NCBI GenBank assembly: GCA_965178125.1
Contig: OZ237736.1
Span: 434,001 to 498,000 of the forward strand
Source: Bilabrum cf. latius
Taxonomy: Eukaryota
Direction of reading: 5' to 3'
DNA: 64,000 bases
Shown piece after piece: positions 29,874-59,177 of the stretch (position 1 is the first letter of the stretch; each line of letters opens with the position of its first letter). A program made the position numbers and the translations under genes. The notes beneath the pieces are model-generated. The model was not told where the DNA came from. It searched no databases and saw only the letters and a program-made list of their open reading frames with translations.

Positions 29874-32800
29874 TCACCCCATCAATGCTGCAAGGGCCGG
29901 TGACGAATGCCTTCGCGCTGTTCCTCGACGAATGGATGAGCTCTCACCGGTACTAGGGCTTGCCCTGCTCGGCGCTCCTACCGGCGGCGATCCTGACGGC
30001 TTCTCCTGCGACTTATCTGCACCACGACTCCCAGGAGTATCTGCCAGCTATGCTGGGGATGCAGCGTCTCGGCAGCTCACTTGGCGGCTTGTGCCGTTAT
30101 CGTCAACCGAGGAATCAGACACTGTGCTGTTGGTGCCTTCTCGCAGCCTCCTCGCACCTGCTGCTCGAGGTAACGCTGCAGAACTTGCAGATGTAGCATG
30201 CACCCGGCGCTAGTTTGAAAGCCCTTGGTCAAGCGAACGTTGGGCTGGTGAAGACTGGCGCTGGCCTGCAACCGCTGAAGCACCTGCTCTCCTGCGCGCC
30301 TCCTTGGCCCGTGCTCGCTCCACCTCTCTCTCTTTGGCACGACCCGCGATGGCCTGTGCCACCACTCTGGCATTCTGCTTCACCGTGCTGTTCCAGTGGT
30401 GCTGCAGTGCAGGCCCCTGGAAGGCTGACAGCACCAGTGCCGTGAAGGTCGAGTCGCCCAGGATGAGAGGCACAAGCGGGGAGGGCTCTCCGGTGTGGGG
30501 CTGGGGGTGGCACAGGGCAGCGGCAGCTGTGGCTAGCTGTGCGTGCGGGCTCTGGATGCACACGCACAGCCTGCGGATCAGCCGTTCTCTCAGCGGGCCC
30601 ACCTCGGGCACCTAGGACCCCTCTTGCTCGTCCATGCATGAAGGCGGGCCTTCCGCATCATCCCGGCCATCTCGCGGTGAAAGTGGGCCAACACCGGCTA
30701 CACTGCCTGCGCCTGCCTTTTCAAGGGCCCGTCTCGCTGCCCCTCCTGCCCTCGCCAGCATGCGAGCGTGTCTCCTCGCGTCCTTGGACCCGCCCCTCTT
30801 GCCCATGCTGCCCTGGGACTGCCCCTCGTGGCTGAAGGCCCACGAGTTGAGCGTGGTGGCGAGGAACCTAAGCAGCAGGATCTGCCTCGTGGATGCGTTC
30901 CGGGGCCACCGCAGCAGCACAGTGCCGGCTAGGTACCTCGCAGCCCCCGCATCAGCCGCAGCCGCGGCTGTGGCACACCGCAAGACAGACGAGTACTCCC
31001 CGCACACGACTGGACCGAGCCGGACCAGGCAGTGAGCCACCGCGACAACCAGCCGCCCCGGCCCTACTGCTGCAAAGTGTCGACTAGAGAAGGCACCCGA
31101 AGACAGTGATGATGGGTGTCGGTTCCCCTTTGAAGGCGTGTTGGAAGGAGTTGCAGCCTCTCGCGCAGGTGCGGCGGATACTCCCATCGCTGATTTCAGC
31201 GAAGCATCGGCTGCTGCCGTCCTGCCATTGCCAGCGTCGGGGCCCCCAGCGGTATCCCCAGTCTGATGCAGTTCTTGTCGCAGCCCTACTGCCAACATGG
31301 CCCGCGCGTCTGCGTCTGCATCTGAGTTGGAACGCTACCTGGTGGCAGGCAGCGGGTGTGGGGACGACGATGAGACGTTCGGATCGCTTGCTTCTCTCTG
31401 TCCCCGACCTTCGTGCCCTGCGTAGGAATGCACTGACGAACTAGCCGAGGTTCCGGCGGAATGGTCACCGATACGACTGGGCCTCAGCTGACTTGTCTCG
31501 CCTGAAATCACTCTGCGCAAGGGGTGCGCCACTCGGACGCTGTCATTCCCGTCCCTGCTGGCTAGCCGCGCAGAAAAAGCGCTTCCCTTTTCAAGCACGA
31601 TAGGAGAGTGGATTGCTTCACCGAGCGTACGGGCCGGTAATGGGATGGGTGATACGCCGCTTCCCAGCTCCCTAGGCAGCCCAGCGGTCTCTGAGAGTCC
31701 CGGCCGATAGCTCGCGATCGCTTGCCCGCAGAAGGCCAGCAGTTCCCGCATGGAACCGACCTGCACATCGCTCGCTGGCTTGATCACGACCCCCGTGTCT
31801 GAATCCAAGATGCCCAGGCCGGAGGCAAGGGAGACGGACCCGCGGTGCACTCGCCGCATGATTCTACCGCGCCTCACCACCCTGGAGGCAACTGCAGTGC
31901 TGCCACCTGTCGCAACTGATCCAGCTTCATCCTTAGTAGAGCCGGAGCTAGCCCCAGGCGTACTCTAGTGCCAGGGCGCGGGCGACTGGGAACGTCCCGC
32001 TTCGGAAGGAACACCGCCAGCAGTAGAGCCGCCTTGGGAATCATCCTCACTGGCAGTCATGTCTCCAGATGAAGTCCGTGCGACTCCAAGACCACCGGAC
32101 GCACTGACAACAACAGCCTCGTCTTCTTCGTCGCTATCAGAGTCAGCTAGAGACAGCATGGAGTCCGGGCCTGTTCTCAGCAGCGATTCGGGCAGCTTTG
32201 ATTCGTTCGCCATCGCGTATTGCACCGCAAGCGAGGTCACCCTGACACGCTTGGTGATCGCCGCTGCCACCTCGCACACCACGCGAGAGCGCCACATCGC
32301 GAGAAACCTGTCCAGGTGCCTTCGAGCCACATCCTGAGCACCCTGTCTCTGCTCCTCCGCTTCCTCCCTGTCGTCATCGTCACTGCCCTCTGCATCGCTC
32401 TCGTCTTCTCCCTCCCAACCGTACCCGCCCGAGCTGCCACCGTCATCCGTATCTCCACATGATCGCCCAAGCGAGCCAGTGAACGAACCAGACGATGCGT
32501 ACCTCCTACTAGCAGGATTTGAACTGCTGGTGCCCGCACCAGCCAGCGGCCCGAACGAAGTCGGAAGCTTTGTCACTTCATCGCCACCGGTATCCTCGTC
32601 CAGGCTGCTCTCACGTGACGCGTGGGTGTGTGATGGCGAGCTCAGCGCGAGGCCGGGGCTTGTAGAACTGGTGTGGTCCTTGGAGGTGTCCGCCGGCTGC
32701 CTAGGCGGTGACAGTGGCAGCCCAGTAGGAAGACTCGGCTAACCTACAAGGCTTCCAGAGTGCTTCTTGGCAACTAGGCCGACGGAGCTGTTGCCAGTGG

Positions 32801-35800
32801 GCGTGGCAGGGGGTGTTCGGGCTCTGGGCTGGGCAGCAGTTGCCAGGTCAAGGGCGCTTGGTGCCAGCTGCAAGTCGAGACCTGTGGAAGCGTGCGCCAT
32901 TCCAGACAGCGCCGACATGCTGGGGCTCCTGGGAGGTGGGGACGTGGAAGGCCGCAAAAGGCCACGCAGCGCCCTCGGTGACTTGGCTACATCCGAGGTA
33001 GTTACTGCTGCAGTTGTTTTTGAGGACATGGCAGTTTGTGATGCCCCAGTGCTGTCTTGGGCTTTGTCTTGGCGTAAAATAACGCCTTTACCCGATCCGT
33101 CCTATTCCCAATCGTCCGCAGACAGACCAACCAGCTCTCCAGACATGTCGTTGATACCTTCGTCCAGACAACCACTGCCGTGCTCGCTACTCTACCCCTA
33201 TGCTGCACTGCTGTGACTTGTTTGCCCTTGCTGATCGCTTGCATCCTACCCGGGCAAGCCAGGCCATTCGGGTGCGGCTGCCTCTTGGCCGGCAGGCCGA
33301 TCTGCCGTCAAATCCTCCATAAGGTGTTGCTCCGGCAAACCTTGCTCCCTGGCCTTTTCAAGCTCAGCCAAAGAGGTATGAGACCCACGCTGGCCCGTCC
33401 CAGATCTCACGGATATCAGACCGCGGTAATTGCGCCCCTGGCCACTGACAGCGCCGGACGATTCAAGGTGCGGTGGAAGAAACCCAGAGGCAACGCTCAT
33501 GCCATCAGCGGCGATGCTTGCAGTGGCTGGGCGGCCCACGCTTCTTCCGCCCGGCGCCACCGACTCGGTCTTCTTCGCCCTCAGCCTCCGCTTCCTCCAG
33601 GTTGACCAGCCCCGCAGATCGCGCGGGCGGGGATTGTACAAGCTGTGCAGCAGCTGCAGCAGAAACGTGCGCTCGGTAGCCTTGGCCGACACCTGGAGCT
33701 GGGTCACAGCGCCGGTCAAAACTGGTGAGCTCAGCAGCCAGGGGCCTCCAAACTTGGAGAGAGCCAGGAGCAGATCGTACAGCACGCTGCTGTCGTGCTC
33801 GGAATCCAGGCCTGACATGGCACATCTCGGCCTTCCTTCTCGAGTGGTCTGGGGCTACCGCGCCCTGGAAGATTTCGCATTCGGCTGGTCTTCCCCAGCG
33901 TGCGAACCAAGGGCTTCGGCTGGTGTCCCAGCTGAGCTGCTTCTAGCCCTGACACCAGCATGTCGGAACGAGTCCCCAGTGGCCTAACTCAGAGATGGAG
34001 CGGACGGTGACGGCCGAATCCCGTTGTTCAAACCCGAGCCTCCATCCTGGGACTCGGTGCCACTGCTCTCTTCGTTCGAGTCCACCTAGCCAAATGCGAG
34101 AAGCCTGCCTTGCGCCGGAGGGAGCGCATCGGCCACGTCCTGGTCCACGACCCCTCGCTTTCCTCTACGCCGCAGCCCGGAAGAACCCCCGTCGCTCTCG
34201 CTGCCACTGCCTTCGTCCTCGCTGCTGCTCACGATGTCGTTCACGCCGACCTGCCGGTACCGAAGTCCAAGCACGCCAGACCCACCGCCGATGTCCTGCG
34301 GCCCCGCCTCATCGTCACCTGCCAGTGCACCGTATCGCGAACCACTAGCCTTGTTGAGCAGGCTGATCAGCACGTACTCCTGGGCCTCATCGGTGGTGAG
34401 CAGTCGGCGACCGCTGCCGAGTCGCTCTGACCTCGGCAGCCTGATCCCCCCGTACCTTTTCCACTGCCCCGATGTCAGCATGGTGTGCACGCTGTCGGGA
34501 CCAATGCGCTTGTCGGAGATTGCAGGAGAGCCTTTGCCTGCACTGAGCTCGTTCAGGTCCTCGTCAGCCTCAGCCAGCTGCTGCAAGCGGAGGCGGTCCA
34601 GCTGTGCCTGCATCTGCTTGCGTCGCATGCGCGGGAAGAACGCGCTTTCGGCGTCATGCGAGTTCTATCCGGATCCAGCAGGCGGACTGTTCATCATCGC
34701 AAATCCTGCGAGAGTCACAGACGTGGATTGACGCTCCCCAGGAGTCACGGGAGGCGGAGAAGGCGGCGCTTCGTCGTCTTCCAACTCGTCGTCTGGTGAC
34801 GCCAGCAGCTCGTGAGAACCGCCAGATGGCGGCGCGCTGTCTGGTTCTGTTGACGGCTGCCACTACCTTTCAGCATCGTCTCCGAGCAGACGCGACCGAA
34901 GTTGATCGGCGCGCTTAGCGACGAGTGTCCGTCTCAATTTAAGGGCATGCCACGACGTCCATGGGTCGACCAGGCGAAGCGCGTGCCTATCCTGTGGGGC
35001 AAGCAACCCGGCGTGCGCGGCCGATAAAAGTACCGCAGTGCGATGGCTTCGACGTACGTCAACGTCCTCGCTACTGCTGCTGCCATCGGTGCGCTGCAAG
35101 CCGCGACCGATCCCGGCATAACCATCGCAGGCGCCTTCGCAGGCAGCCATGGCGGCAGGCCCCAGTGTTTCTATCCTATCGCCGACCCGTGCCGGAGATG
35201 GAGCGTCCACTCCTAAAGTTTGCAGCACAGACCTGGCTCTAGGGGCCCCGACGGCCCACCGCAGCAGCCTGAACACCGAGTTGGGCTGGAGGAAGAAGGG
35301 GGCCAGCTGCGGGCTAGGAGGCTCCCTGGCTTCTGCCACTCGCTGAATCGCTGCTAGAAACGACCTGGAGGACGACTATCGAGACGCATGCCCCCTCGAG
35401 CGCCCGGGGCTCTAGGGTTCGGGCGATGACGTTCTGGGCGAGACGAGCTCCATGCCACGAACTCCAGCATTCACTGTACCCGCAACGCTCCCCGCCGCAG
35501 ACTCAGCCTCCCAAGCGGCAGCAAGATCTCCAAAGGAATCGTCCGCGCGGAGAAAACTAGCCATGCGAGACCGCCGTTTCTCCCCTCCACCCGTTGCAAA
35601 CTCCTCCCCCACTGTCTTTTGCACGTTCTCCTGCTCCATGCGGGCGAATCGCCTGGCAGCAGCTGCGGCTGCATGCCTCCTTCGCCAGGATGGCGCTAGC
35701 CCGAAGCACGCATCAACCACTCCTCGAACAACGACCAGGGGAGTATCATTCCGCGTCAGCACTGCTGCTAGCAGAGCCACAGTGTATGCCACTAGTGCGG

Positions 35801-36344
35801 GTGGGGGCAGATTCTGCCTATCCTCTTGCACGGAGAACGGGTCCGCGCGCAGGCCGGGTCGCCCTGCCCTGCTCCGAGGCGGGCTGCGGTACGTCAGCTG
35901 TGCCGTAGACGCAGGCTAGCCCCACCTGCTGCTCGCCTCGAGACGGTTTCCACTCGCAGTGCCAGTCGAAGCAGACGGTGCGGCAGGCAGGGCGAGCTGT
36001 GCCAGGTATGACGCCTCGCCGAACGCGCATGCAAAACGATGCAAGAATCGCCATGATGGATGTGCTCCAGCGTCGCCTGCCTCAAACAGGGCGTACGCGG
36101 CCCGCGTGCTCCCTCTGTGCGCATGCATTCCATCGGGTCGCCTGGCACCGACTGCAGCAGACGGGTGGTAGCTGCCACTCGAGCCTCGAGAAAGGTGCCT
36201 GCCTCTGGCCTGTGGAGAACGCGGCTGGTACTGGGACTGCGTTCGGACTTCTTGCGCTGCAAGACACCCCCTAACGCTATTCTACCATTTATCACGCACG
36301 ACTGGAGGCGCGCTGCCGGAGTCACTCGCGCCCGAGGCCGGCAT
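29874..36344 (-). CDS. ~2150-aa divergent PP2A B56(B')-like regulatory subunit with long low-complexity insertions (TAG=Gln)
   Basis: Ten ORF-track ORFs share one frame and all end in TAG. B56-like blocks: LYDLLL, ERTFLLQLLHSLY, LLRWPRNASTRQILLL, LCVCIQSPHAQLA, HHWNSTVK. Ends TGA 29874. Confidence 0.65.
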
Positions 36345-36852
36345 GGGAGGACAAGGAGGCCTGGGCAGATTCGCAGGGCTGCACGCAGACACGCGCACCT
36401 TGGCGTTTTGTCCGAACCCACCGGCCCATACCTCTTGTCCTCCATTCTGCGGGTACTTTATACGGGCCGTGAATTCAAAATCCCCTGCGATGCGTACTGA
36501 TGAACATCGTTTACATTCGAGTGGTGTGGCAGATCAGCCGCAATCGCGGGGAAACCCGCGGGTATCGAGAAGTAGCAGAGCAGCGACAATGTGAGACTCC
36601 CTATCAACCTACACCAAAACTATCAACAAATGCGGATGGCCAGCGCATGAAAGCGTCGATACCGCGCGGCAATCCGCGGCATCCTGACCTGGATCATATG
36701 ACGGCATGGGTACGCCGTCAGTCCAATCAGCACGAGTCGCTGCATCCAAGCCATCGTAGATAGAACCAATCACAACAATTCCATGGAAAACATCTATTGC
36801 AATACAGCACTAACAAAAACAATCCGCTGCGTGCCGCAGACAGCCCAAATCT

Positions 36853-36953
36853 TGTTATCCGCCAAAATGTGTGTAGTTTTTATATAAGTAAACTCTATTT
36901 CTACTATATAGTAGAAATAGAGTTATCATAACTCCACATTTTGGCGGATAACA
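36853..36953. other. Left terminal 101-bp imperfect hairpin
   Basis: 19-bp outer stem (36853-36871 with 36935-36953), asymmetric 19/10-nt internal region, and a perfect 34-bp palindrome at 36891-36924. Confidence 0.95.
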
Positions 36954-38220
36954 TAAGAGGTCAATATTAACCACTTCACAACATCTTAAGCCGTAGTCCT
37001 TCATAATGTCCTTCACTTGAACATAATAATTTAATAGCTATTTATTCATATATCTACCTAATTTAATACCTTCGCGCCGTTAATGTCTATCTGTTAGACC
37101 TTTACTTTACTTAATCTGTTGAGTGAATCCCTAGCCTAAGTCTTAGGATATGCCCGCCCGAAATTGCGGAAATATATAGTCATTTAAGAATATATGTTCG
37201 CAATTCTGGGCGCGTAGGTGTATTGAGTTTTATATTATGATTTGGTTTTAAGTATCAATTGACATTTACCACTTTAGAAAATAACTAAATAAATACTTAA
37301 AGAGATTGACAGAAGTATTAAAGTCTTTTTAATACTTCCAATGAAAAATTTAAATTAATAAATAAAACTAAACTAATATATCAACTTAATTTATCTCTTT
37401 TTTTATTACTTGTCAATCTATACTTAAATAATTGAATATTTAAATATAACTAGAAGGAGATATTAATCACTTTATAAAGTCTTTTATATGTCATCTCTTC
37501 AAAACTTCAAATATAAGGGTATCCCCTTAAAAATACATCCTTTAATCTATCGCCCGAAATTGCGGTAATATATAGTCATTTAAGAATATATGTGTGCAAT
37601 TCTGGGCGCGTAGGTGTATTGATTTTTATTTTTCATAATTCTTTAAATATGTTAAAGTCCTTTGTTTGAGTATATGATATAAAGGAATACAAAGCGGGAT
37701 AACTTAAAAATGATAAATGTTTTGACGATGACTTTAAAATGACTCAATGAACTAGTTTATGTCAAGTGTATTACTTTGAAATGATTAATCACTAGATTAA
37801 ATGGAAAATATAGGATAATTAAATATGGTATAGTATAATACTAGCGCCCGAAATTGCGGTAATATATTAGGATATTAAGATATATTGTCGCAATTCTGGG
37901 CGCGTAGGTGTATTGAGTTTTATATTTTGTTAATTTTGACATAGTTATCTTATAGAGGTGTAATTTTGTAATAAAGATATTTCTAGTATGTGCTATATTA
38001 AATGTCCAGAAATGACGGCCCGAAATTGCGGAAATATATAAGTATTCTAGAAATTATGTCCGCAATTCTGGGCGCTTAGGTGTCTTCAATAATTAATAAT
38101 CAACTACTTCTTTATTTTGATTAATTTTTTTGACTTACCGTTCATTTTATTGACCACTTAACGGGATATCACAAAAAGACTTAACCACTTGACGAGATAT
38201 TTTAAAATAACTAATAATAA

Positions 38221-38351
38221 ATATGACCGCCCCAAATTGTATCTCCAGATATGACCGCCCCAAATTGTATCTCCAGATATGACCGCCCCAAATTGTATCT
38301 CCAGATATGACCGCCCCAAATTGTATCTCCAGATATGACCGCCCCAAATTG
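38221..38351 (+). repeat. 28-bp tandem repeat x4.7 in the left TIR (mirrored at 59783-59913)
   Basis: Unit atatgaccgccccaaattgtatctccag, which contains the left arm of the dispersed palindrome. Confidence 0.95.
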
Positions 38352-38422
38352 CGGAAATATATAAGTATCAAGAAAATTATGTTTGCAATTCTGGGCGCTC
38401 ACCCGTATTCAATTTTACATAT

Positions 38423-38632
38423 TCACTAACTCATACCACTTGAAGTGGTCCATTTGATCTTGTGTTCATATTTAGAATGTCCTTTAACTTGTATCAATGT
38501 ATTGAGTACTTCTTCTAACTAGTCCTTAACAAATGATTTTGTCTTATGATATGTCTTGGTAGTCTTCACCTATTTAATAACTAATTTACAAGTCTTACCG
38601 ACAATATACTAAGTTAATAAATCTTGTATCAT
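38423..38632 (-). CDS. Small hypothetical viral protein (69 aa, TAG=Gln)
   Basis: ATG to TGA, open only if TAG is sense; divergent from 38641. Confidence 0.35.
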
Positions 38633-38640
38633 AATATATT

Positions 38641-39048
38641 ATGTATGAGATAATTATTGATGGATTCAAATATAAACCCTCTACTCGTAGAAATAAGAAA
38701 TATGATGTATTCAAAAATGGTAAGTATATCACTAGCTTTGGTGATGCACGATATGCTCAATACTTTGATTTGATTGGTAAGTATGGAGATAATAACCATA
38801 TTGACCCTAAAAGACGACGCCTATACTACCGAAGACACGGGAAGACTACCGATACTAATAGCTCAAAATATCACAGTCATAAGATCTTATGGGGAAGTGA
38901 TAATGCTATTAAGGACTACTTAACAAAACTAGCCAATGGAGTATTAGATGTAAAAAGGTATGTTAAAGGGGATACTTTGGAAAAATGGTTAGATGACTAT
39001 AGGTCTAAAGTGGACGCAAGACTCAAGTATTTGAAAATACTGGATTAA
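38641..39048 (+). CDS. Conserved small giant-virus/virophage protein (DUF5754-like)
   Basis: STRRNKKYDV..FGDARY..D..H.DPKRR..Y..RH..S.KILW pattern; ends TAA. Confidence 0.65.
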   Translation: MYEIIIDGFKYKPSTRRNKKYDVFKNGKYITSFGDARYAQYFDLIGKYGDNNHIDPKRRRLYYRRHGKTTDTNSSKYHSHKILWGSDNAIKDYLTKLANGVLDVKRYVKGDTLEKWLDDYRSKVDARLKYLKILD

Positions 39049-39080
39049 TACTATTAAATTAAATACATTTAATAATATAA

Positions 39081-39710
39081 TTATGTGGATGTCTTAGCCT
39101 AATATTCTTTGTCTCTTTTCTCTTTGGCTCTAAGTCTTCTTCTTTCATTCATTTTGTCTTTGTTCCTTTGATAATATTCTTGTTTTTGCTTTTTTATTTT
39201 GTCTTTATTCTTTTCTAAGTATTTCCTTCTCTTGTCTTTATCTTTGAAGTAATTGGTTCGTTTCATTCTACAAATTTTCTATTTATTTACTTCATTATAT
39301 TCTTTGAGATACTACTTAATCTTGCTTTTGTTCTTCTGTCTATACATTTTATTTAGTGTACTCAATTTATCTTTATTGTCTTCACGATACTCTTTTTTGG
39401 TCCTACCAGCTATGCACTTATTCACACACTTATTACTTCGTATATGTCCACCTTCTATTTTCTTTAATTCTTCTTTGTTCTTGCATGGGCAATTCTCGAC
39501 TAATTCTATTCTTACATCTCCTAAATCATAAATATCAAATGATGAGACAAACCCTTTGTATTTTGTTCCGTTCTACTTGTAATACTTATAATCTTTCGTA
39601 TGTCCTCCTTTTCTTTGACTTAAAGTCTAACAAGTAGAACCGTAATAGACTTTTGAAGTGTCATTAAGTGAATATAACTTGTAAATCTTAGCTTTAGAGT
39701 AGTCAGGCAT
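39081..39710 (-). CDS. GIY-YIG endonuclease with basic helical C-terminus (missed by the ORF track)
   Basis: MPDYSKAKIYKL..VYYGSTC*TLSQR..H..RIELVENCPCKNKEEL..EG.HI..CVNK.IAGRT; ends TAA. Confidence 0.9.
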
Positions 39711-39818
39711 TGTTTTATATTGGTTTATATTGTTATTAGTTGTTTTATCTTTAAGTTGCTTTTATGACACTAATTAGACTTAAAAATAATATATTATTAT
39801 AGTATATACTATATTATA

Positions 39819-40349
39819 ATGTGCTATAAGTGCAAAAATTTCATAATCAATAAGCTAAATATTACAGACTGGGATAAGATAGCCCCTTTATTAGTCCCTG
39901 ATGGTAAGAGAAAGAACGAATAGAAGTGTATCTGTTCACATCCTATTAAAACAGTCTTTCTTGTAAAATATCCACCTACTGGAGATATATTTGATTTAGG
40001 TTCTGAATGTATTAATAACACTTTTAACTCTGATCATAAAGTCTACAAATACTGTATGTATAAGACTTGTGATGTATGTAATAAACAAGTAAAGAGAAGT
40101 AGCTGGAAAAGTCATATTAAATCCATTAAACACGAATTAAATAAAGACATATTAAAAGATAAGAGTAGATGCACTGATTGCGATGAGTTCATTGAAAAAC
40201 ATAAATATAAAAAGACTTGTCTTAGTTGTTATAATAAAAAGAGGAAATACTCACAATGTAAGAAATGTGAAAAGTATCTTATTAAACCAGGAGCCACTTT
40301 CTGGTTTTGTTATGACTGTAACTAGAAGAGAAAGAAATATAAGAAATAA
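39819..40349 (+). CDS. Cys-rich zinc-finger protein
   Basis: CICSHPI..LGSECI, CDVC..HIKSIKH and several CxxC pairs; two TAGs; ends TAA. Confidence 0.75.
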
Positions 40350-40389
40350 TGTTTAATTTACGCCAACATATTATATCGTCTTTATATAT

Positions 40390-40623
40390 ATGTACGACTT
40401 GAAAATTATAATGTCTCCCAAGTTTTTAAAAGCTTGTAAAAATAATAAAGTTATTGAAAAGGCTATAAAAGCTATAGAGGACAATTTAAAAGATGAAATT
40501 AAATTATGTTTTGATGGCAATGAGTGGGATATGTCAAATGGATCATAGACTCTTTTTTATAATCTTCAAAGTAAAGAAGAACGAGAAGAAATATTAAAGA
40601 AAAATGGAACAATTACAGCATAA
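40390..40623 (+). CDS. Small hypothetical protein, N-terminus resembling 54993 and 55936
   Basis: Starts MYDLKIIMSPKFLKAC; preceded by the CGCCAA..TATATAT motif; one TAG; ends TAA. Confidence 0.5.
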
Positions 40624-40709
40624 ACAACTAGAAGAAATAACAGAAGACAATATGTTATAAAATCGTTTAATTAACGCCAAAATTTATATCTACTATATAT
40701 ATAGTAAAT

Positions 40710-42365
40710 ATGACTAATAAAGGCAAGACATACACTAGAGGTAAAATATCTTACACGTATGGTGATGAACCGACAAAAAATCAAAAAGATAGTGATAATT
40801 TAGAAGCCACTATTAAGGGACTACTTGATAAAGGATTTGAAGAGGTACCAACTACCAAAGCAAGTATTAAAAAAATACCTTTATATTCTTATGTATCTTA
40901 TGTAAGTAATATCAAGGGAAAGCCACTATTTAGAAGAGGTGGGGTAATTAACTCAATATAGAAGGATGGAGACTATTTCACTTTATATAACTTAGTGAGT
41001 CGTGTTCATTTTAGCGTTCAATAGTCTAACCTAGTTCGTCTTTTTTATAAGATGACTAAAGCTTAGACGAAAAAACTTAATAAACCAACCGGTAAATTAA
41101 TTGAAGTAGAAGATGAGGACGACAAAGACAAATTTAATTATAAACCAATATTAAAGAAACTATATTATGAAGAAGGTAATGTAGTCAGTCGTGATGCGTT
41201 ATATGACCTAGCTAGACAAAAAGATAAACGTATTAAAAGACGACAAGTAGAAAAGTGGTTAAATAACTAGATGCTCCACCAATTGACCAAAAAACGACCT
41301 AAACAGTCAGCAGTAAGTTCTTTTGTACCTACTAAGCCTTTCTCAATTTACGCATTGGACTTAATAGACATGCAAAAGTATTCAGACACTAATGACGGCT
41401 ATAATTGGATATTAAATATAATGGATATATTCACAAAATACCTATGGAGTATTTCATTAAAAGATAAGACATTAGTTAATATAATTCGTGAGATGAAGAA
41501 ACTATTTAAGAAACCTAATTGGAGAAAACCGACTGTTATGTTAAGTGATAATGAGTTTAATAAAGAGGCATATATTAAATTTATGAATGACAATGACATA
41601 AAACCACTATTCACCATCGCAGGAAATCCATAGTCTAATGGTGCAGTTGAAAGACTTAATAGGACTATAAAAGAATAGATTAGAAAAGACTTTGCTATTA
41701 AGAATGACAGTGATGGTGTTTGGCATACGTCATTATAGAGACTAGTAAGAGCATATAATAAGAGAAAACACAACACTATAGGAATGTCTCCACTAGAAGC
41801 AATGAAACCCGAAAATTTAGAAGTAGTTAGATCTAGAATTGAAAATAAGAAATTATCCAATAATTTCGACGGGAATGATAAAGATCTTAATGTAGGGGAT
41901 AGAGTTAGAGTATTACTTGAGAAGAACAAGTTTAAAGGAAATTTATTTAATTGGTCTAGAGAAGTCTTCACTGTTAGATAGAAGACCAAACCAAGAAATC
42001 CTAAGTAGAGGATTAAATATAAAGTAATGGACAAAGAGGGAGAACCTCTTACTGGATTCTTTAATGCTTCACAGTTATAGAAAATAGACAATGTAGAACA
42101 CGAAGATAAGGTAAATGATGACATAGACAAGGAAAGTGAAGAGCCTGAAATTGATAATGTTGAAGGTTTAGAAGTAGAACCAGACACAATAGAGAAGTTT
42201 TTAGATAAAAGACAAAATAAAGATAGACTTATTGAATATTTAGTCAAATATAAGGGATATTCTAATAAGTTTAATGAATGGATTACCCGTAAGAAATTAG
42301 AATAGGATTATGGGAAAGACCAAATACGACCACTTGCGAAAGACTATTCTGATAGATAGAGATAA
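40710..42365 (+). CDS. Retroviral-type (rve, DDE) integrase with C-terminal chromodomain, 551 aa
   Basis: VEKWLNN*MLHQL, ALDLIDM, LNIMDIFTKY, LSDNEF, P*SNGAVERLNRTIK, VGDRVRV, WSREVF; chromodomain IEKFLDKR..EYLVKYKGY..NEWI. Twelve in-frame TAGs; ends TAA. Confidence 0.95.
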
Positions 42366-42595
42366 TTAATCTAGTAATATACTTTATGGCATAATACCAG
42401 CGCCCCAAATTGCGATAATATATTAGGATATTAAGATATATTTCCGCAATTCTGGGCGCGTAGGTGTATTGATTTTTATAATTTTATAATTTTATGTTAG
42501 CCAGTGTATAGATACGACTTTTGAAATATTAAATTTTTCTAGTATTTACCATATTAATATAAAACAAAGTCAAAGAAATTATTTATAATAAGTAT

Positions 42596-43276
42596 ATGGA
42601 ATTGTTAAATATAACAAGATACAAAAATAAAGACCTTCTAAAAAGAGTAGTCAAGTTAAGTGAAAAGTACAAGTGGTCTCGTGATGACTTAAAAATGTTA
42701 TGGATTAACAAGCATTATTCAAGTTTATAGGGTGAAATAGATGATGAAGGGGACGAGATAGCAACTATAAATTTAGTGAGACAACCGTCTAAAATAGAAC
42801 CTATCTAGTTAAAACCTCCACAATTAGAACGACAATAGGCTATATTGGAAGATGTTGAATTAGATAGCGAAGACATAGAGGATAATAAAGAGGAAGACTA
42901 TTTGAATGATACATATAGTGATACAAGTAGTGAAGTAGTGAGTGAAGTCATTGAAGAGAAACCAATTAAAGAGAAACCAAAACCAAAAATCAATATTAGT
43001 GATCTTACAGTGAGTGATAAACCTGAATATGTTTATTGTGTAGAGATTAATGATACAAAGGTATATTTTAACAAAAAGAATACATAGACTTATCCTGATG
43101 CTTTAAGAAGAGGTAAATCACACGCTGATAAAATGAGAAAGCGAGTATTAGGACATATTCATTTTGATGAGACCGATATGTATGACAGCAACTTATGGTA
43201 TGCTAAAGTGTGCTGGGGTGATAGTGATAAAATTCATGATAACTTTACAAAGTTTAAAAATATCTTATTAAAATGA
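42596..43276 (+). CDS. Hypothetical protein with acidic middle region; C-terminus weakly resembles 38641
   Basis: ATG 42596 to TGA, in frame across TAGs. Confidence 0.7.
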
Positions 43277-43295
43277 CCACTATATATATAGGTAA

Positions 43296-43802
43296 ATGAA
43301 AAACACAATTTGGAAGTTTTTAAATGAATACTTTGATGTCTTTAGTTTAATACTTAAAATACGAGACGAAAACCCTAGTGATGTCATAAGTACTATAATA
43401 GCAATGTATGAAGAGAGCGAAATAGAAGACCCAAAAGAGATCCATAAACATATGAGTGAAATACGTCATAACTTGGAACTTAGATTTAAAACAAAGTATG
43501 TTGAAGTCCTAAGCACCGATCACGATGACAAAGCAGAAAGCTATCTCCATCTTAATAATATATTATGTAATATTGAAGGAGAGCAATATGTGGAGGATAG
43601 CAAAATCAAGATGTCCGAGAAAAAACAAGTATTTATAAAGACTTACGGTGATGTGGATAAATTCAACGAGACTGTCCAAGAGATGGAACAAGAAGACGAA
43701 AAGACTAAAACAGGAGTAGAAAAAGAAATAGATCAAAAGTTAAGTCTATTATGTAATACTTCTAAACAACCAGACAATATTTGTCTAGATTATAAATTGT
43801 AA
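43296..43802 (+). CDS. Hypothetical viral protein, 168 aa
   Basis: Clean ORF ending TAA, preceded by CCACTATATATATAGG. Confidence 0.75.
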   Translation: MKNTIWKFLNEYFDVFSLILKIRDENPSDVISTIIAMYEESEIEDPKEIHKHMSEIRHNLELRFKTKYVEVLSTDHDDKAESYLHLNNILCNIEGEQYVEDSKIKMSEKKQVFIKTYGDVDKFNETVQEMEQEDEKTKTGVEKEIDQKLSLLCNTSKQPDNICLDYKL

Positions 43803-43929
43803 TATCAGTATGTATTTTAATTATAAAAATACAAATTGACAGGTTAGATACGACCGCCCCAAATTGCGGAAATATTATAGCTATTCAAGATATATTTGTG
43901 CAATTCTGGGCGCGTAGGCGTATTGACTT

Positions 43930-44568
43930 TTATATGGAATAGCCAAGGTCTAGAGTCGAACGAAGCTTATCGTGAAGCTATTCGTAAGTATTATAAATGT
44001 AATAGCTAGAAGGGTTCAATTCTTTGATATATGAGTTACGGTCTTCTAACATAGACTTCTATTTATCTACTTTCTTATCCTTTAATGTCTTCTAGAATAG
44101 TGAATTAGATGGAAGACATACAACTATACTTTCTTTTTTAAATAACTCATTAGCTAGACTTAACTCTTTAGTAAAAAATATTACTCTCTTCTCACTACCT
44201 TCATTCAACCAGTTATCTTTTACCCATTGAAGGGCTTCTTTACTGGCTTTTCTATTAAGTATATTATAATTACCCCAATCACTTTTTAACTTACATTCGT
44301 CTAGTTTCATAAGTAATTCGGGCTCCTAGACATATACTCCTAGAGTACTATCTAAATCAACAAGTAAACAGTCTTTAGAACTAGACCGTAATATTTGACA
44401 AGCGGTAGACTTACCACTACCTTCAGGCACACAGATACATATTTTTTTACGTTTATGTAAAGGTTTATCCCATAACCACTACCAACAAGACATACCACCA
44501 GAGTATGCTAGAGGTAGTAAGACACTTAAACCTCCTACAACGACACTGCTTGAACTGATTCCATCCAT
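43930..44568 (-). CDS. P-loop NTPase/kinase-like protein with hydrophobic N-terminus, 212 aa
   Basis: VVVGGLSVLLPLAY, then VPEGSGKST..LLVDLD; TAGs read through; ends TAA. Confidence 0.7.
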
Positions 44569-44611
44569 TTTATTATATTAATAAAAAAGATATTTCTATA
44601 ATTAAACTCAA

Positions 44612-45334
44612 TTATCCTGTTAAGAAAATACAAGGTACGACTTTATATTCTACTCCATTAGCATCAGTAGAAGTACCACTTGAAAAGTCTTCATCTACTA
44701 GAGCTTTTGCTACAATAGTCTAATCAACAGAGACTGGTTGAGGATTAGGCGCGTAGACATATCCACTATCAGAGCTATTTATTAAGTAGTCACCCGCACT
44801 TACATCTCCTCCATTTTTATTTACTTTCACAGCTCCATCACCTAAAGATGCCACTAGGACTTTACCATCATCATGGTGTTCTCCTACATATACTCCAAAA
44901 GGTGGTGAATGTTGAGATGCTTGACTTACGACATATTCATTAGTTGTGGGTCCTTTATTAACTACACTATCAAGAGTAACCACTGACCCAATACCAGCTG
45001 GTAAACTAGAAGCAACATCACTACAAGATGCAACATGTGTACCGGTAAATGATAAGAAGTTGGTTGCTGTCATAGTACTGGTTTGAGTTCCATCACCTGC
45101 GACATTAATTGAGATAGATGCACCTGCTGATGCTGAGTTTTTACCTATTCTCCATGTGAAAGACTTAGCATCTTCATTAGTACCACTCATAATATAGGGT
45201 AGTGATTGACCATTGAAGTTAAGTCCAAAGTTAGCGGCTCCATCAAAGCCTTCTGCTTTAATTGATTCTACTTCAATAGACTTACTCTTTAATTCATATT
45301 CATTTTTGTTTAAGAGATTGTATATTCCTGCCAT
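44612..45334 (-). CDS. Putative fibre/virion protein with a peptidase-G2/intramolecular-chaperone-like C-domain
   Basis: SFTGTH..GSVV..FGVY..VASLGDGAVKV..GDYLINS..GY..*TIVAK..PCIFLTG; ends TAA. Confidence 0.6.
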
Positions 45335-45577
45335 TACTTATAATATATTAGCTAGACTAGATATTTTTTTTTTAAATTACGAGATTTTAAAAATTTAGTA
45401 TCTTAAGATATAGTATAATACCAGCGCCCCAAATTGCGATAATATATTAGGATATTAAGATATATTTCTGCAATTCTGGGCGCGTAGGCGTATTGATTTT
45501 TATAATTTAGTCATTTTTAATATAGCCACCTCTTACAATGTAATATTTTTAAATTAAAATATTATAGTATATACCAT

Positions 45578-47708: not shown

Positions 47709-48527
47709 ATGGTTAAATTAACAAAGTAGTAGCTAAAGTATTATTCACGATTTGATAATAAGATATTCAAGTCTTTTAAAATAAATAGAAGTGATATTTA
47801 TTTAAATGGTTCATATTCATTTACTCATAATATGCTTTCACTTTGGGCTGGAGACATAGACCTATACTCTCCCGTTAAATTGTCTGATGTCAATAGTGTT
47901 ATAAATGAATTAAAGACCTTAAGAGGTAGTAGATTAATACATATTTATAACGTTGAATATGATGATAATGGCGTCTCTTTAGATACATTTCTTGATACTA
48001 ATAGACCTAAAATATTAAAATCTTTAAAATAGTAGAATAATCCTATGATATTCGTTGAAAGTTGGGTCTATACTGGATATATTGAAGAGGTTAGTATATT
48101 ATATGATATTGGAGGTAAGATATTGAAAATGAAGCCTAAACAAGTAGCAGATAGGATGATAGATGACATAAAAGACTTACAAAAAGAACGAAAATATTTC
48201 AAGATATTAAAAAGACTAGATGTTATATATGACGAATTAGGGCAAAAGAAGAAACAGGAAGAGATTGAACAACTTATAAAGAATCCCGATGTAGGCTTTC
48301 TTTACTTGACTATTACAAGATTAAAAAGTTTATTACTTCCAACAGTTCCATTTAAATTAAAAAATAGAGTTATTGATAGACTTAAGAATGATGTACGTAA
48401 ATTAGGACTTATTAAACCAGTTTATCAATACTTTAATACGTTCAATAGTAAAGATGTAAGTATTATAATTAAATATTTAGAAGACTAGCTCAATAAAAGG
48501 GTCGTTAAATTAGTTTCACATAATTGA
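47709..48527 (+). CDS. Nucleotidyltransferase-fold protein (Sputnik V21-like)
   Basis: LNGSYS..WAGDID motif and KYFKILKR; two TAG-TAG pairs in frame; ends TGA. Confidence 0.6.
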
Positions 48528-48721
48528 ATACACCTAAACGCCCAGAATTGCAGACATAATTTTCTTGATACTTATATATTTCCGCAATTTGGGGCGCCCT
48601 ATATTGTGAGATTTTCATTAGATTGACCCGAAAATGTAAAACCTCTAACAGCCTACGCGCCCAGAATTGCAGAAATATATCTTAAATAGCTATAATATTA
48701 CCGCAATTTGGGGCGGTCGTC

Positions 48722-49243
48722 TCACCAGTCACTATAAAATAGCTCGTCAATGTCTTCTTCGTTAAGTTTATTAACTTTTTCTGTCGGATGGAGGGGATTA
48801 TCTGGTCGTATGTCATGTAAATAGCACTTAAGTCTGAAAAATTTTAGATATTCATAAATTAACTACATTTGAAAAAAGTCTTTTTTAAATAACCTTTCCC
48901 ACTCAACGGATTGTTTAAATTGTTCTATACATTCATTTATTTTCATTGAATTAGCATAGTCAAAGTTGAATGTTTTTAAGTGATCAAAAGAAGACGATAC
49001 ATATCCGTTATCATTTAACGTAAAGTCCATATCATAATAGTACTTTTTACTGCAATTGATAATACATTCTCTATACTTACGAGCAATTAGAAGACAAGTT
49101 ATATAATTAGTATAGCAATCTACTCTATCAGTTGTCATCATATTACGCTACTCTTCTGCTTTCTTATAGTACTAATTAACTTTACATGAGTACTTATAAA
49201 ATGATTTAATATATCTTTTTGAAATTAGAAGTTTGTGATCCAT
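48722..49243 (-). CDS. Hypothetical viral protein, 173 aa
   Basis: ATG 49243 to TGA 48722, across three TAGs. Confidence 0.6.
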
Positions 49244-49388
49244 AATTCTATATATTTATATGATATTTTAATCATATTCTTAAGACTGTGCACTCTAAAA
49301 TGAATATTTGAAATGGCTACTTCTCACAATATACCTTTTGAACCCACTAATTATTAGAAAAATAATAAATATTAACATATAGTATATA

Positions 49389-50456
49389 ATGTCATTATCA
49401 TACGATGAAATACCAAATAGTCATTTAGTTGCTTTAAGAGAATACAAGCACAAGAAGAGGAACAAAAGCGTCTTTTTTAGTGAAGATGTAGGGGAAAAAG
49501 TCATAACTCCAGAAGATATAAGTGATGATTTACTTGAAGAGTATTATGGAAAGAGAGCAATTAAATATGAGAAGAATAAAAAAGCATTACGTGAAGAGAT
49601 GTGTAAGCTAGTGAATGGAAATAAAAAACTAGTTAGAAAGACTAACGAGTTAAGAATAGATGATAAGAGTTAGTTTGAAATAGTCCCATTCTTTGATGAT
49701 GAGACCAAAAGACAAATACACTATTTAAGTGGTTAGGCTGGTGCTGGTAAGTCTTATATTGCTAAGTCTTTACTCAAGTATTATCATATGTTCATTCCAA
49801 AGAAGAGGGTTTTAGTCATTACACCAGTACAGGAAACAAATCCAACTTATTTAAAATATGGTAATTTTATTGATATTGATAAATTAGTAGCAGTAGATAG
49901 AAACGATAGTTATGATGACTTAATGAGGAAATACAAAGAAGAAAAGATATTCTTTAGGTAGGAAAAGAAGTCATTAGAACCTCATGAATTAATTAAAAGA
50001 GAGATAGAGATAGAAAGAATGAAACCAACAAGTAAAGACAAGACAAAGGCATCATTTACCACTACTCCATTGTATGAAGAATGGGCAAAATAGGGTCCTT
50101 CTGTGGTGGTATTTGATGATTATGAAGCCTTAAACGGTGATAAAAAGTAGAGAGCGTTATTCTTAATTAAGCGTATAGGTGAAGTTGGAAGACATAGCTC
50201 AACAAATATGATAGTTATAAGTCATTTAACGAATGATTATGCGAATACTAGGTCAATAGTCATGGAAAGTCATAATATTATTTTATTTAAGAGAAATCTA
50301 TGGAAATTTAGCAAATATTTAATGAAAGCATATTTAGGATTTGATGCAAGTCTTATAAATCGTGTTTATAAATTGTTTGGAGAAGGTAATAGATGGCTAT
50401 GTATTAATAAGACTTATAATTTTATCACTTGTCCTAAATAGATGTTCGTATATTAA
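49389..50456 (+). CDS. FtsK/HerA-type (A32-like) DNA packaging ATPase
   Basis: Walker A YLSG*AGAGKS, Walker B VVVFDDYE, EVGRH, ISH, TRSIVMESH, YLGFD and RW; ends TAA. Confidence 0.92.
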
Positions 50457-50475
50457 TTTTCTTAGTATTAAGTAT

Positions 50476-51024
50476 ATGGATATAACCACTGCATTAAGTC
50501 CTGAAGAGGTACAAAGACTATACTTTACATTTACAAAGTAGCATATACCAGTTATAATGTATGAAGAAATAAGTGATACTAATAACATCAGACAATTTCT
50601 AGATGAAAATCCTTTATTTGTCCTTTATTATCCTAACTTAGTAGAAGGAGCAACAATGAGCGGTCATTATACTGCGGTCATATTTAACAAATCAAAGAAT
50701 ACTCTTTATTTTTGGGATAGTTATGGTCAATTACCTGATACTCATATTCCAGTTGTAGGTGGAGTCATAGACCCATAGAAGCTATATGATAGAAGTAGTC
50801 TTCTAATAGATCACGTATTAGATGCTGGTATTAATGTTGACTATTCAAATCAAAAGAATCAACTTATATCTAATAACTCTGCCACATGCGGGAGGTGGTC
50901 AGTGCTCAGACTTCTCTTTCATAATTTAACGAATGATTAGTTTAATAGTCAATTAAAGAAGGCTTTTAAAAAGTATGGAGGAGGACTAGATAATGATGAA
51001 CTTATTACTTTGATAATTAGTTAA
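50476..51024 (+). CDS. Virion maturation cysteine protease (Ulp1/adenain-like)
   Basis: SGHYTAV, YFWDSYG, NQ..TCGRW catalytic motifs; ends TAA. Confidence 0.93.
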
Positions 51025-51384
51025 TATGACATATACCATAAATTTTTAGATATTGAAAATTGATATCTATAAGGTGGCCATATTAAAAAGACTAAAATAT
51101 AAAAATGAATACGGGTACGCGCCCAGAATTGCGGAAATATATCTTAATATCCTAATATATTATCGCAATTTGGGGCGCTAGTATTATACTATATCTTAAG
51201 ATACTAAATTTTTAAAATTTCGGAATATTGGATTTTTTCAATGAGTCAAATAATTAATAAAAACTTTTTTAAAAAGTCATTACGGGTAAGCGCCCAGAAT
51301 TGCGGAAATATATCTTAAATAGCTATAATATTACCGCAATTTGGGGCATTAGACAAGACTTATTTTCTTGATAAATGTTATAGA

Positions 51385-52311
51385 ATGGTAGAGATTCAAG
51401 AACCAGATATCTTTTATATTAACTCATAGGATACTATAACATCTATTAATACTAATAGACCAGTATCAATACATGAACAGCGTCAAGGTAATATCTTGAC
51501 AAATTCACAAAACTACTTATTATCACTTGACCGATGGACTCTTAAATGTCGTATTCCTTTATTTGTAGCAAGTAAAGAAGTAAAGAATAGCGATAATTAG
51601 TCAATTTATAAGATGTCGTTTGTGAAGAAGAGTGATGGAACTACTTACACTCGTAATATTGTCTTAACCAAGTCGTTATATTATAGTCTTAAGACCTTAT
51701 CTAATGAATTTAATAATACTCTTAGTGATTTATGTGGAGATGCTAGTATTCCAACTGATAGTATAGTATTTGAATATCACGGTAAGACTAAAACTTTTAG
51801 TTTCACCCGTTTAGCGGCTTTTACAAGTGCGTGGACTTTAAGTTTTAACTTTCCTTTATTCTCTATATTTGAGACATTTGAATATGATGATGAAGGTAAA
51901 GACATTAAAAGTGATACTTATATAAATCTTTTAGATGGATACAATGAATAGAGTGCTTCTACCTTAGATTAGTTTCCTACTATGGAGTATATTCAAATTA
52001 TTAGTCCATCTCTTCCAATACTTCCAGAATTTACGCCATCATATAAAAGTACATCTAGTACAGAGATACAAAGTGAAAATATCTTAAGTGATTTCAAGAT
52101 AGACAATACAACAGGAACGAGTTTTATTAAAATAAACTTTAGTAGTGGAGGAAATCATAGATGGCAATAGTTCTATAGATCAGCATTTAATAGTTATAGT
52201 ATAGTACCGTATTTTAGAGATACTTTTGGAAACTTATACGAAATACCCTTTACTTTTGGACAAGGACTTAATATAAAAGCTCTATTTAAAAGTAAAAAGT
52301 TAATAACTTAA
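51385..52311 (+). CDS. Minor capsid (penton) protein, 308 aa
   Basis: PDIFYI..E.R..IL..NYLLSLDRW..IPLF at the N-terminus; ILSDF; RDTFGNLY..NIKALFK at the C-terminus. Lies directly upstream of the MCP. Confidence 0.85.
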
Positions 52312-52353
52312 AGTAAAAAATAAATAAATATCTTTAGTCTTAATATATTTATA

Positions 52354-54240
52354 ATGTCTGATATGGATAATGTACCTGTAGCAGCACAAAGCAAAGTCGT
52401 AGATGACGTCTCAGAACTACCAGTAACTCAAATAGCTGACGAAAAACTCAACTTTGTGGGTGATAGTCAAGCTATTACTCTAGGAACTACCCTTGGATAC
52501 TCTTCCAAGTTCCAAAACCACTATGAACCAGATGGTGGTAACTCTAGCGCAACTAATGCATTTAGAAGTAATTACACTTTTGTCGTGCCATCAAATCAAG
52601 GAATGACTGACAGTAATCCCCGTCTAAGAGTTTCATTTGACGTATACATCTATGATAGTTAGAACAATGGAGCAGTAGCTCAAACTGATATCGTCAATAA
52701 GGTAGCCCCTTCTACATTTATGGTAAATTCAATGATCACAAGTTCCACAGTTAAAATGGGAGACTTATCTCGTAGTTCATCACCTTATCAATTAGTCAAT
52801 TTAATAGCTAGAAGTCTTGACCGTGCCACTCTAGCACAAATAAGTCCTGTCTTTTAGGCTGATAACACTTGGGAATTTAATACTGCCGCAAATGGTCTTG
52901 CTAAGTCTGTCCTTCAATGGGGTGTAAATGATGATAGTATTATGGAAGCTCGCGGTCCTGGTAAGAATTACCGCGCAACACTTGAAAAAGTGGATGCTAA
53001 TACTCCAATACCTAATAATAATGTAACACCAACTCAAGACTATGTCAAATTACATATTGAAATCTCTGAAGCACTTCTTGCACGTCCTTTCCAATATATG
53101 ATGGGTGGTAATGCTAGACCTTTTGTTGATCATCCACAATTAAATGTTAATTTACAAATGAGAAATAACTTAATTGATAAGATGTTTAATACTTCAAGTG
53201 ATTGGAATGGAGACTATGCTTTTGCTTTATCCGATTGCTAGATCCATTTTGATGTCTTTACTTATAATACTCATCTTAACTTCTTGAAGAAAGTACCTAA
53301 ACAAATATTCTACAACTCTGTTGACTTTGAACTACATGAAGAGCCTAAACTTGATAATCCTATCACTACTAAAGGTGTCCATACTTTTAATAATTATCAA
53401 CTTTAGACTTGCCCTTCTTGGTTTGCTGTGTGCTTAGTTGATTCTCAATATGGAGAAGCTAGTGGTACACCTCATAGAACACTTGCCATTAACAATATTA
53501 AAGTACAACTTAGGTCTTAGGGTTCTATTTTAGGAGAACTTACACAAGACGATATCTTTAGACTTAGTGAAAGAAATGGATCAAATAGTGAGTATGCTTC
53601 TTTTACTAACTTAGATGTAACTGTAGGAGGTGCTTCTAAAGTATACGGATCTAATGGCTGGCTCTTATTTAGACTTAGTGATTTAAATACTCCTGAAACT
53701 ATTCAAAGCAACAGTGCTGACCCTATTAGTATTCGTGTTCAAGTAGCCTATGACGAACCCCCAACCGCTGCTATGTCTCAAGGATATAAAGCTCAATTAT
53801 TCTGTGCCTATGACAAGATTATCGTGAATACTAGAGGTGCCGCTATTGAATGGCGTGAAGATAGTGCTTCTGTTGACCCTGAGAAAGTGGCTAAACCTTC
53901 TAATTATACATTTTCTAATATGAACTACTCTAAGAACGTATTAGGTGGAAGACGTCGTAAAGTGATGCAATTCTTTAAGAGAGCCTTTAACAAAGCTAAA
54001 GACTTAGGACGTAAAGTGGTAGACTTTGGAAAGAAAGCTAAAGCTAAATTTGATAAAGTGAAACCAGCTCTTCGTAAAGCAAGACAAGCAGTAAGTGAAT
54101 ACTTACCCGATGAAGTGAATGACTTAGCTGAACGTGTTGGAGCAGGTCTTTTAACTAGTGGTGGAAGTCTTTTGACCAGTGGAGGGAAGAAATTAACTAA
54201 GGCTCAACTTATGAAACTTAGAAAGTAGCTCAATATGTGA
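52354..54240 (+). CDS. Virophage-type major capsid protein (double jelly-roll), 628 aa
   Basis: Three track ORFs in one frame; FMVNSMITSSTVK, ARG, ISEALLARPF, NYQL*TCP; basic C-terminal tail after VLGG; size typical of virophage MCPs; ends TGA. Confidence 0.88.
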
Positions 54241-59147: not shown

Positions 59148-59177
59148 TCTAGTATATACTATACTAAAGATAATTTT

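Follow-up and report, generated by a model that had tools for sequence, protein, structure and literature searches.

A 64-kb window of a chromosome of the protist Bilabrum cf. latius was analyzed, and 24,429 bp of it (36853-61281) was found to be an AT-rich virophage insertion. The GC content is 29-35% within the insertion and 54-66% in the flanking DNA. The element has 5'-TG...CA-3' tips and is bordered by a target-site duplication of 5 bp, the pentamer AATCT being present immediately before the left end (36848-36852) and, in identical form, immediately after the right end (61282-61286). The context on the two sides reads ...CCCAAATCT, element, AATCTAGC..., and a 6-bp duplication, AAATCT, is an equally possible reading. 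Each end consists of a terminal 101-bp imperfect palindrome (36853-36953 on the left and 61181-61281 on the right, both on the plus strand) followed by one arm of a terminal inverted repeat. The left arm (36954-38441, plus strand) is non-coding and carries five hairpin-bearing repeats of about 100 nt and a 28-nt tandem array, which is also contained in the right arm (59693-61180, minus strand).

Reading of the genes depends on the genetic code. Under table 11, the longest open frame of the element has 302 codons, and read-through of TAG opens frames of 942, 638, 564, and 541 codons. In the host DNA, too, frames of 2219, 2063, and 1358 codons are open when only TAA and TGA are stops; the host frames at 29874-36533 (minus strand) and 7800-13991 (plus strand), for example, need TAG as a residue, as do all virophage genes. 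TAG probably encodes glutamine: of the 11 TAG codons in the primase-helicase gene, three align with columns in which 24/25, 20/25, and 25/25 homologues have Gln, and one further TAG codon lies at an Ile/Leu column. The virophage would then use the code of its host, and the element would be adapted to a host that reads TAG in this way. Reading TAG alone as a residue yields a compact gene set. Table 6, in which both TAA and TAG are read, was rejected because it opens every frame of AT-rich DNA, and table 4 gave no change in frames. No tRNA genes or Rfam families were found in the 64-kb window; the element is therefore without a suppressor tRNA.

Once TAG is read through, 20 tightly packed genes fill positions 38641-59147. 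An integrase of 551 aa (40710-42365, plus strand) has an rve domain (8.8e-8) and a C-terminal chromodomain (Chromo, 4e-7), and its PDB matches are retroviral, PFV, and Ty3 integrases and chromobox proteins. The rve gene, the inverted termini, the TG...CA tips, and the 5-bp duplication together are those of a mobile element moved by an rve integrase. Four genes on the plus strand, in an order that fits the virophage module, follow at 49389-54240. The first encodes a P-loop ATPase of 355 aa (49389-50456), probably the packaging ATPase, with matches to AAA_10 (1e-5) and AAA_22 (1.3e-5) that are both slightly under the Pfam cut-offs. The second encodes a possible cysteine maturation protease of 182 aa (50476-51024), whose position and size fit; its Peptidase_C57 match (0.0043) scores 16.3 bits, below the cut-off of 24.5, and a PDB search gave no match. 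The third encodes the penton (minor capsid) protein of 308 aa (51385-52311), which matches the PDB entries 6g41, 'Minor capsid protein' (4.8e-13), and 3j26_N, 'Minor virion protein' (4.7e-5). The fourth encodes the virophage major capsid protein of 628 aa (52354-54240), which matches PF22031 MCP_V20_C (3.2e-7, 30.4 bits against a cut-off of 27) and the 'Putative major capsid protein' entries 6g45/6g43 (1.2e-15), as a double jelly-roll capsid protein of the virophage family would. We take 6g45, 6g43, and 6g41 to be mavirus proteins and 3j26 to be from Sputnik.

The replication protein of 932 aa (56349-59147, minus strand) combines an N-terminal Prim-Pol domain (8.9e-14) with a helicase that resembles the herpesvirus origin-binding protein (UL9-like) and the CyRepA1 plasmid replication proteins; matches were obtained to replication origin-binding protein (1.1e-5), ORF904 (2.6e-5), and CyRepA1 (2.1e-33). 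Its gene starts 2.1 kb from the right tip. No PolB domain, by which Polintons and mavirus replicate, was found in the 20 ORFs filling 38641-59147. An HUH/Rep domain, the nickase of the parvovirus type, was absent from the 20 ORFs in Pfam, PHROGs, and NCBIfam searches, and no resolvase, protelomerase, or tyrosine recombinase domains were detected among them. The element also differs from the protelomerase type (N15, phaeoviruses) in that it has no resolvase gene and that its palindrome is imperfect and terminal. Judged by its predicted proteins, the element is a virophage whose capsid and integration module is mavirus-like and whose replication module is of a non-PolB kind; this agrees with the initial annotation of an integrase-mobilized virophage.

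Near the left end, beside the integrase gene and a gene for a Cys-rich 176-aa protein (39819-40349), lies a gene encoding a 209-aa protein of a GIY-YIG nuclease family (39081-39710, minus strand). The assignment comes from its relatives (619 at E<=0.001), PF01541 being present on 12 of the 120 relatives listed; the protein itself has no Pfam match and no PDB match. It is a candidate nicking enzyme, and could be either a selfish homing nuclease or an enzyme that nicks the ends.

The intergenic regions contain a family of repeats of about 100 nt, with 8 copies in 37135-45510 and 12 copies in 48496-60978, five of them in each terminal repeat. Each holds an inverted repeat, CCCAGAATTGCGG ... CCGCAATTTGGGG, with the two parts about 28 nt apart. 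The repeats have one orientation in the left part of the genome and the opposite orientation in the right part, independent of the direction of the neighboring genes. Possible roles for them are as terminator/promoter cassettes or as binding sites of the origin-binding-type helicase. Each terminal repeat has, along its inner edge, a perfect 28-nt tandem array (38221-38351 and 59783-59913; 4.7 copies) that overlaps the arm motif of this intergenic repeat. Another tandem structure, a perfect 42-nt duplication (1581-1662), is present within a host open frame.

A palindromic motif, C(C/T)ACTATATATATAG, stands directly 5' of the start codons of five genes, including that of the integrase (40692-40705, 43280-43291, 54413-54426, 54978-54991, and 55921-55934), and is absent from the host DNA of the window. 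In a shorter form, CTACTATATAGTAG, it makes up the center of the 34-bp palindrome within each end (36903-36912 and 61231-61240).

Two isomers of the terminal palindrome

The 101-mer consists of five segments: a 19-nt stem arm S (36853-36871), a 19-nt segment A (36872-36890), a 34-nt perfect palindrome P (36891-36924), a 10-nt segment B (36925-36934), and a second 19-nt stem arm S' (36935-36953) that is the exact reverse complement of S. Folded back, it would have a 19-bp stem, an asymmetric loop of 19/10 nt, and a perfect palindrome of 34 bp. Its predicted folding energy as single-stranded DNA is -32.2 kcal/mol, compared with -5.5 +/- 2.0 for shuffled sequences (z = -13.3), and none of 200 shuffles folded as well. 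It is an imperfect terminal palindrome able to fold, as in replicons with flip/flop telomeres.

The two copies of the 101-mer (36853-36953 and 61181-61281) are 100% identical over 101 nt in direct orientation, and the 1,507-nt inverted repeat that begins at the inner stem arm (36935-38441 and 59693-61199) is 100% complementary. This bears out the observation made in the initial annotation that the 101-mer is in direct orientation while the rest of the terminal repeat is inverted. The orientation of the 101-mer can be read because the palindrome is imperfect. From the outside in, the left end reads S-A-P-B-S'-repeat and the right end S-B'-P-A'-S'-repeat. Since S, P, and S' are neutral to orientation, the ends differ solely in the placement of A and B, and relative to the inverted repeat they are opposite, inverted-complement isomers (flip and flop), as had been proposed. 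In an ungapped comparison, flip and flop differ at 43 of 101 positions, and S, P, and S' are common to both.

The 19-mer S occurs four times in the window, in each case at an expected terminal place, against 0.02 occurrences expected by chance. With S and S' as exact complements, flip and flop have an identical TG...CA 19-mer at the tip, so that the earlier statement that the outer 19-mer is kept in both isomers is correct.

Terminal junctions in read-derived contigs

We examined Logan k-mer contigs from four sequencing runs, X1-X3 from one sample and X4 from a second sample of the same study; these runs are probably the data from which the assembly itself was made. The contigs were built with k = 31, which is shorter than the 101-mer, and contigs of this kind cannot join an end type to the unique DNA beyond the 1.5-kb repeat. 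A contig covering the left flank, consisting of host DNA, S, and the first 9-11 nt of A, extends to 36880 in X1-X3 and to 36882 in X4, with zero differences from the window in all four runs (depths 25.8, 51.6, 37.4, and 130). These host-depth contigs confirm the left host junction and the left isomer, that is, the orientation of A, in 4/4 runs. The initial annotation had looked to spanning reads for both junctions; the support obtained, exact in every run, is for the left host junction.

The contig of the inverted repeat begins exactly at position 36935 in X1-X3, and in each of these runs a loose end that is the reverse complement of the start of A is found before 36935. The A'-S'-repeat junction is therefore present in the reads, as well as the B-S'-repeat junction. 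Thus, both isomers adjoin the inverted repeat in read-derived contigs of this one sample, and the single assembled copy has one isomer at each end.

The depth of unique element DNA (38431-38700) was 293, 855, 404, and 443 in X1-X4, or 11, 17, 11, and 3.4 times that of the host contig, and the repeat was about twice as deep as the unique DNA in X1-X3; k-mer depths are not copy numbers, and the contrast between 30% and 60% GC may bias these ratios. Further insertions, free virophage DNA, and composition bias are possible causes of the high depth of the element. The element, which exceeds the flanking host DNA in depth by factors of 3.4 to 17 that differ between samples, may be active in the sequenced culture.

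In X1-X3, the contig over 37897-38250 (354 nt of the repeat) has eight substitutions and two indels relative to the window and is at full repeat depth; the differences of this majority variant from the window copy lie at 38040-38076. The variant of the window was found in X4 only, at a depth of 220 versus 770, which is about single-copy depth. We read this as one chromosomal copy of the window variant together with further variant copies whose abundance varies between samples. In the window copy, both arms have this minority variant, from which other copies differ, so the arms are kept alike within a genome. This sameness of the arms stops at the base of the hairpin.

Ends of relatives and of known systems

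The replication protein has 948 relatives at E<=0.001. We surveyed the ends of 80 IMG/VR loci and 80 metagenome loci of these relatives, including 97 true IMG/VR contig ends. An imperfect terminal palindrome was found at one of the 97 ends. It belongs to a 24,202-nt IMG/VR contig (L074, the same as L081) that ends exactly in a 102-nt imperfect palindrome (13772-13873 of L081). This palindrome has a T-shaped fold, with a 26-bp stem and two small arms like the AAV terminal repeat, and about 450 nt of repeat-bearing non-coding DNA separates it from the start of the primase-helicase gene; the stem is present at one end of its contig only. Two other contigs (L002 and L053) end in perfect 98-nt palindromes with a stem of 49, which may be k-mer assembly artefacts or read-through of closed hairpins. 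No comparable palindrome was seen at the 160 locus ends of the metagenome relatives, not all of which are contig ends, and none of 161 relative loci had inverted repeats at both available ends. Seven related IMG/VR records are classed as four with direct terminal repeats, three linear, and none with inverted repeats; the relatives are distant (25-34% identity), and the contig ends examined show no palindromic direct repeats. Terminal palindromes are thus not visibly general in this replicase family, and short-read contigs rarely keep true ends; the survey speaks neither for nor against flipping.

Among described systems, a 2026 bioRxiv preprint (10.64898/2026.07.28.741278) on Halocafeteria reports palindromes in four subtypes of virophages and in one of polinton-like viruses. 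According to the accessible part of that source, they lie within inverted repeats and adjoin target duplications, they are associated with rve integrases and with replication genes other than PolB, and from their presence it is proposed that endogenous virophages use hairpin priming. The Halocafeteria virophages resemble the present element in being integrated, in their size of about 24.5 kb, in being AT-richer than the host, and in having palindromes near the target duplications. Their palindromes are 52 nt long, however, compared with a 101-bp imperfect palindrome in opposite isomers here. The accessible text contains neither 'imperfect' nor 'flip' and reports no scoring of isomers; the GC content of that host is 47%, and the terms 'genetic code' and 'stop codon' are absent from the same text.

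With Nucleocytoviricota (poxviruses, ASFV, and chloroviruses), the element shares linear double-stranded DNA, long non-coding inverted repeats with tandem repeats, and a primase-helicase. The telomeres of these viruses are AT-rich, incompletely paired palindromes of about 100 nt that occur as inverted-complement, flip/flop isomers, which is also what the ends of the element are. By contrast, their ends are covalently closed and a virus-encoded resolvase resolves the concatemer junctions, whereas an open duplex inserted by the rve integrase is the only form seen here and no resolvase gene is present. Parvoviruses and AAV also have an imperfect terminal palindrome in flip/flop isomers, and open duplex ends with the whole palindrome are their replicative intermediate; the likeness to AAV extends to the T-shaped fold of the distant relative described above. 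Parvoviruses are, however, single-stranded DNA viruses of 4-6 kb with an HUH-nickase/SF3-helicase Rep, whereas the element is a 24-kb double-stranded DNA with a Prim-Pol/UL9-like helicase, in which the searches detected no HUH domain. With mavirus, its endogenous relatives (mavirus-like elements), and Polintons/Mavericks, the element shares the capsid and penton proteins, the rve-chromodomain integrase, the inverted termini, and a duplication of 5-6 bp. They have a protein-primed PolB; the element has instead a Prim-Pol/helicase, together with a terminal fold-back palindrome. An exchange of 'end modules' between polinton-like viruses and poxvirus repeats has been proposed (PMC11296320, in its accessible part).

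Proposed processing of the ends

Our interpretation starts from the anatomy of the palindrome, the two isomers at the two ends, the gene set, and the integration footprint, all of which are observed at the locus. We favor, with a probability of about 0.4, the reading that the 101-bp palindrome is the telomere of the virophage, and that the free genome would be a linear duplex whose ends are able to fold back. The Prim-Pol/helicase of the element would drive internal synthesis, and fold-back of the palindrome would complete the ends. A nick at the border between the palindrome and the inverted repeat would be followed by unfolding and copying of the hairpin, that is, hairpin transfer as in parvovirus terminal resolution. 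Each round would invert the asymmetric A/B segment and leave open duplex ends, and the rve-chromodomain integrase would then insert either isomer with a 5-bp duplication. In this scheme we infer the fold-back in vivo, the independent flipping of the two ends, and the nick, for which the GIY-YIG-family protein, a helper enzyme, or a host enzyme would be candidates.

Several features argue for fold-back ends. The palindrome is imperfect, folds strongly, and stands at the two ends as inverse isomers. Only its internal loop, flanked by the perfect 19-bp stem and the perfect 34-bp palindrome, is asymmetric; in functional viral hairpins (AAV, MVM, and vaccinia), an asymmetric internal loop likewise lies between paired segments. 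In the integrated element, the palindrome is fully unfolded as duplex DNA and adjoins the host sequence directly, which is an open end of the kind that hairpin transfer yields and not a closed hairpin. The replication protein is predicted to be a Prim-Pol/helicase, with no PolB. The two arms of one genome are alike over 1,507 bp and the likeness ends at the hairpin, both types of repeat-adjoining junction occur in the contigs of X1-X3, and the distant relative ends in a 102-nt imperfect T-shaped palindrome. The preprint (10.64898/2026.07.28.741278), in its accessible part, ties terminal palindromes to non-PolB replication genes and proposes hairpin priming. Against fold-back stand the scoring of one copy, for which junction resolution or a fixed direct repeat would also predict unlike ends, the absence of an HUH nickase, resolvase, or protelomerase among the 20 ORFs, and the survey of relatives, with an imperfect palindrome at one of 97 contig ends and no inverted repeats in seven IMG/VR records. 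The read check, moreover, covers the left host junction, in runs that are probably the assembly's own data.

The presence of a primase also bears on the proposal that the virus replicates by self-priming hairpin ends. With a Prim-Pol/helicase of its own, the element does not have to use the hairpin as primer; of that proposal, palindrome-mediated processing of the ends is retained as the best reading, in which self-priming may or may not take part. Giant viruses pair a primase-helicase with flip/flop telomeres, and by analogy with them, the role of the hairpin may be to solve the end problem.

The combination of one flip and one flop end in a single genome should arise in half of cases if the ends flip independently. 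It should always arise if a palindromic junction (arm, 101-mer, arm) of a circular form is resolved, if a circle is cut with a 101-bp stagger and filled in, or if the 101-mer is a fixed direct repeat. Copying of one end from the other, by panhandle repair or simple homogenization of the inverted repeat, would give two ends of the same type. One copy with unlike ends therefore fits both hairpin transfer and junction resolution and does not separate them. The open duplex seen on integration fits hairpin transfer or a junction opened by a staggered cut, and closed hairpins of the poxvirus type fit it less well.

A circular or concatemeric form, in which a single 101-mer lies between two arms, could be opened where the 101-mer borders each arm. 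This could happen through staggered nicks that are then filled in, or through cutting of a cruciform, for example by a Holliday-junction resolvase of the helper virus, and subsequent opening. Each such event would yield one flip and one flop end, and a circular monomer would always give the 101-mer as a direct repeat, so that every genome should have unlike ends, as the present copy does. The primase of the element fits internal priming, four of the seven records of replication-protein relatives are of the direct-terminal-repeat, circular type, and poxviruses combine a primase-helicase with flip/flop telomeres that are resolved from junctions. However, those relatives are distant and their direct repeats are non-palindromic where examined, the element lacks a detectable resolvase or protelomerase gene, and an rve integrase could use closed hairpins only after they had been opened again. 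We regard resolution from such junctions as somewhat less probable than hairpin transfer. An arrangement without any role in end replication, in which the 63-bp interior was inverted once by recombination or template switching between the 19-bp arms, or in which a 101-bp direct terminal repeat is simply fixed and the palindrome is an integrase site only, would agree with the single copy scored and with the contig ends of most relatives, which have no terminal palindrome; the 19-bp arms alone account for both ends being integrase substrates. An integrase site requires neither a perfect inner palindrome of 34 bp nor a fold of -32 kcal/mol, though, and the usual outcome of template switching in a quasi-palindrome is a perfect palindrome, not an inverted one. 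In addition, the arms are identical over 1,507 bp while other copies differ, and a process that homogenizes the arms would be expected to erase an old inversion. Such a frozen arrangement is improbable.

Misorientation of the right end by the assembler, with perfectly inverted ends in the true element, would be conceivable in that palindromes are error-prone in assembly and that the read support for a host junction is on the left side; short-read misassembly of giant-virus repeats has been described (PMC13712841, in the part accessible). The A'-S'-repeat junction implied by the right end is, however, present in the contigs of X1, X2, and X3, and even if it came from other copies, both isomers would still exist. 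The left junction is exact in all four runs, the two 101-mers are fully identical, and the target duplication is clean. An assembly error is thus very improbable as the source of the two isomers.

Returning to fold-back telomeres, we tentatively suggest that a virophage lineage swapped protein-primed replication for flip/flop telomeres in the style of giant viruses or parvoviruses and kept its integrase. If so, the same 19-bp stem would be both the base of the hairpin and the end recognized by the integrase, and a helper giant virus or the GIY-YIG-family protein would supply the nick or resolution. One terminal sequence could then serve both a hairpin replication cycle and a retroviral-type integrase. 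The idea of a terminal hairpin had already been proposed; what is new is the footprint of the isomers and the dual use of the terminal stem. The footprint addresses the standing question of how virophages and polinton-like viruses that have no protein-primed polymerase copy their linear ends. In the openly accessible full texts searched, no report of flip/flop isomers at the ends of virophages or polinton-like viruses was found; mentions of flip/flop or hairpin ends, in the accessible parts of the sources, concern giant viruses, as in PMC11788076 and PMC12085832, or stand in reference lists. Within this literature, the isomer pair has no precedent as a concrete sequence footprint of end processing through palindromes in such elements.

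Closer relatives of the whole element were sought in several collections. Scans of IMG/VR with the capsid protein and with the 19-mer S gave no matches, an alignment of the capsid in metagenome contigs gave 171 pattern matches, none of which was confirmed, and a phage collection contained no virophage relative, just the Prim-Pol domains of Enterococcus and Mycobacterium phages. Logan contigs of about 2 kb encode three proteins (P0002, P0003, and P0004), namely capsid proteins that are 88% and 86% identical and a primase-helicase that is 87% identical to those of the element. Since proteins of 86-88% identity are present in other public assemblies, a sister virophage exists elsewhere.
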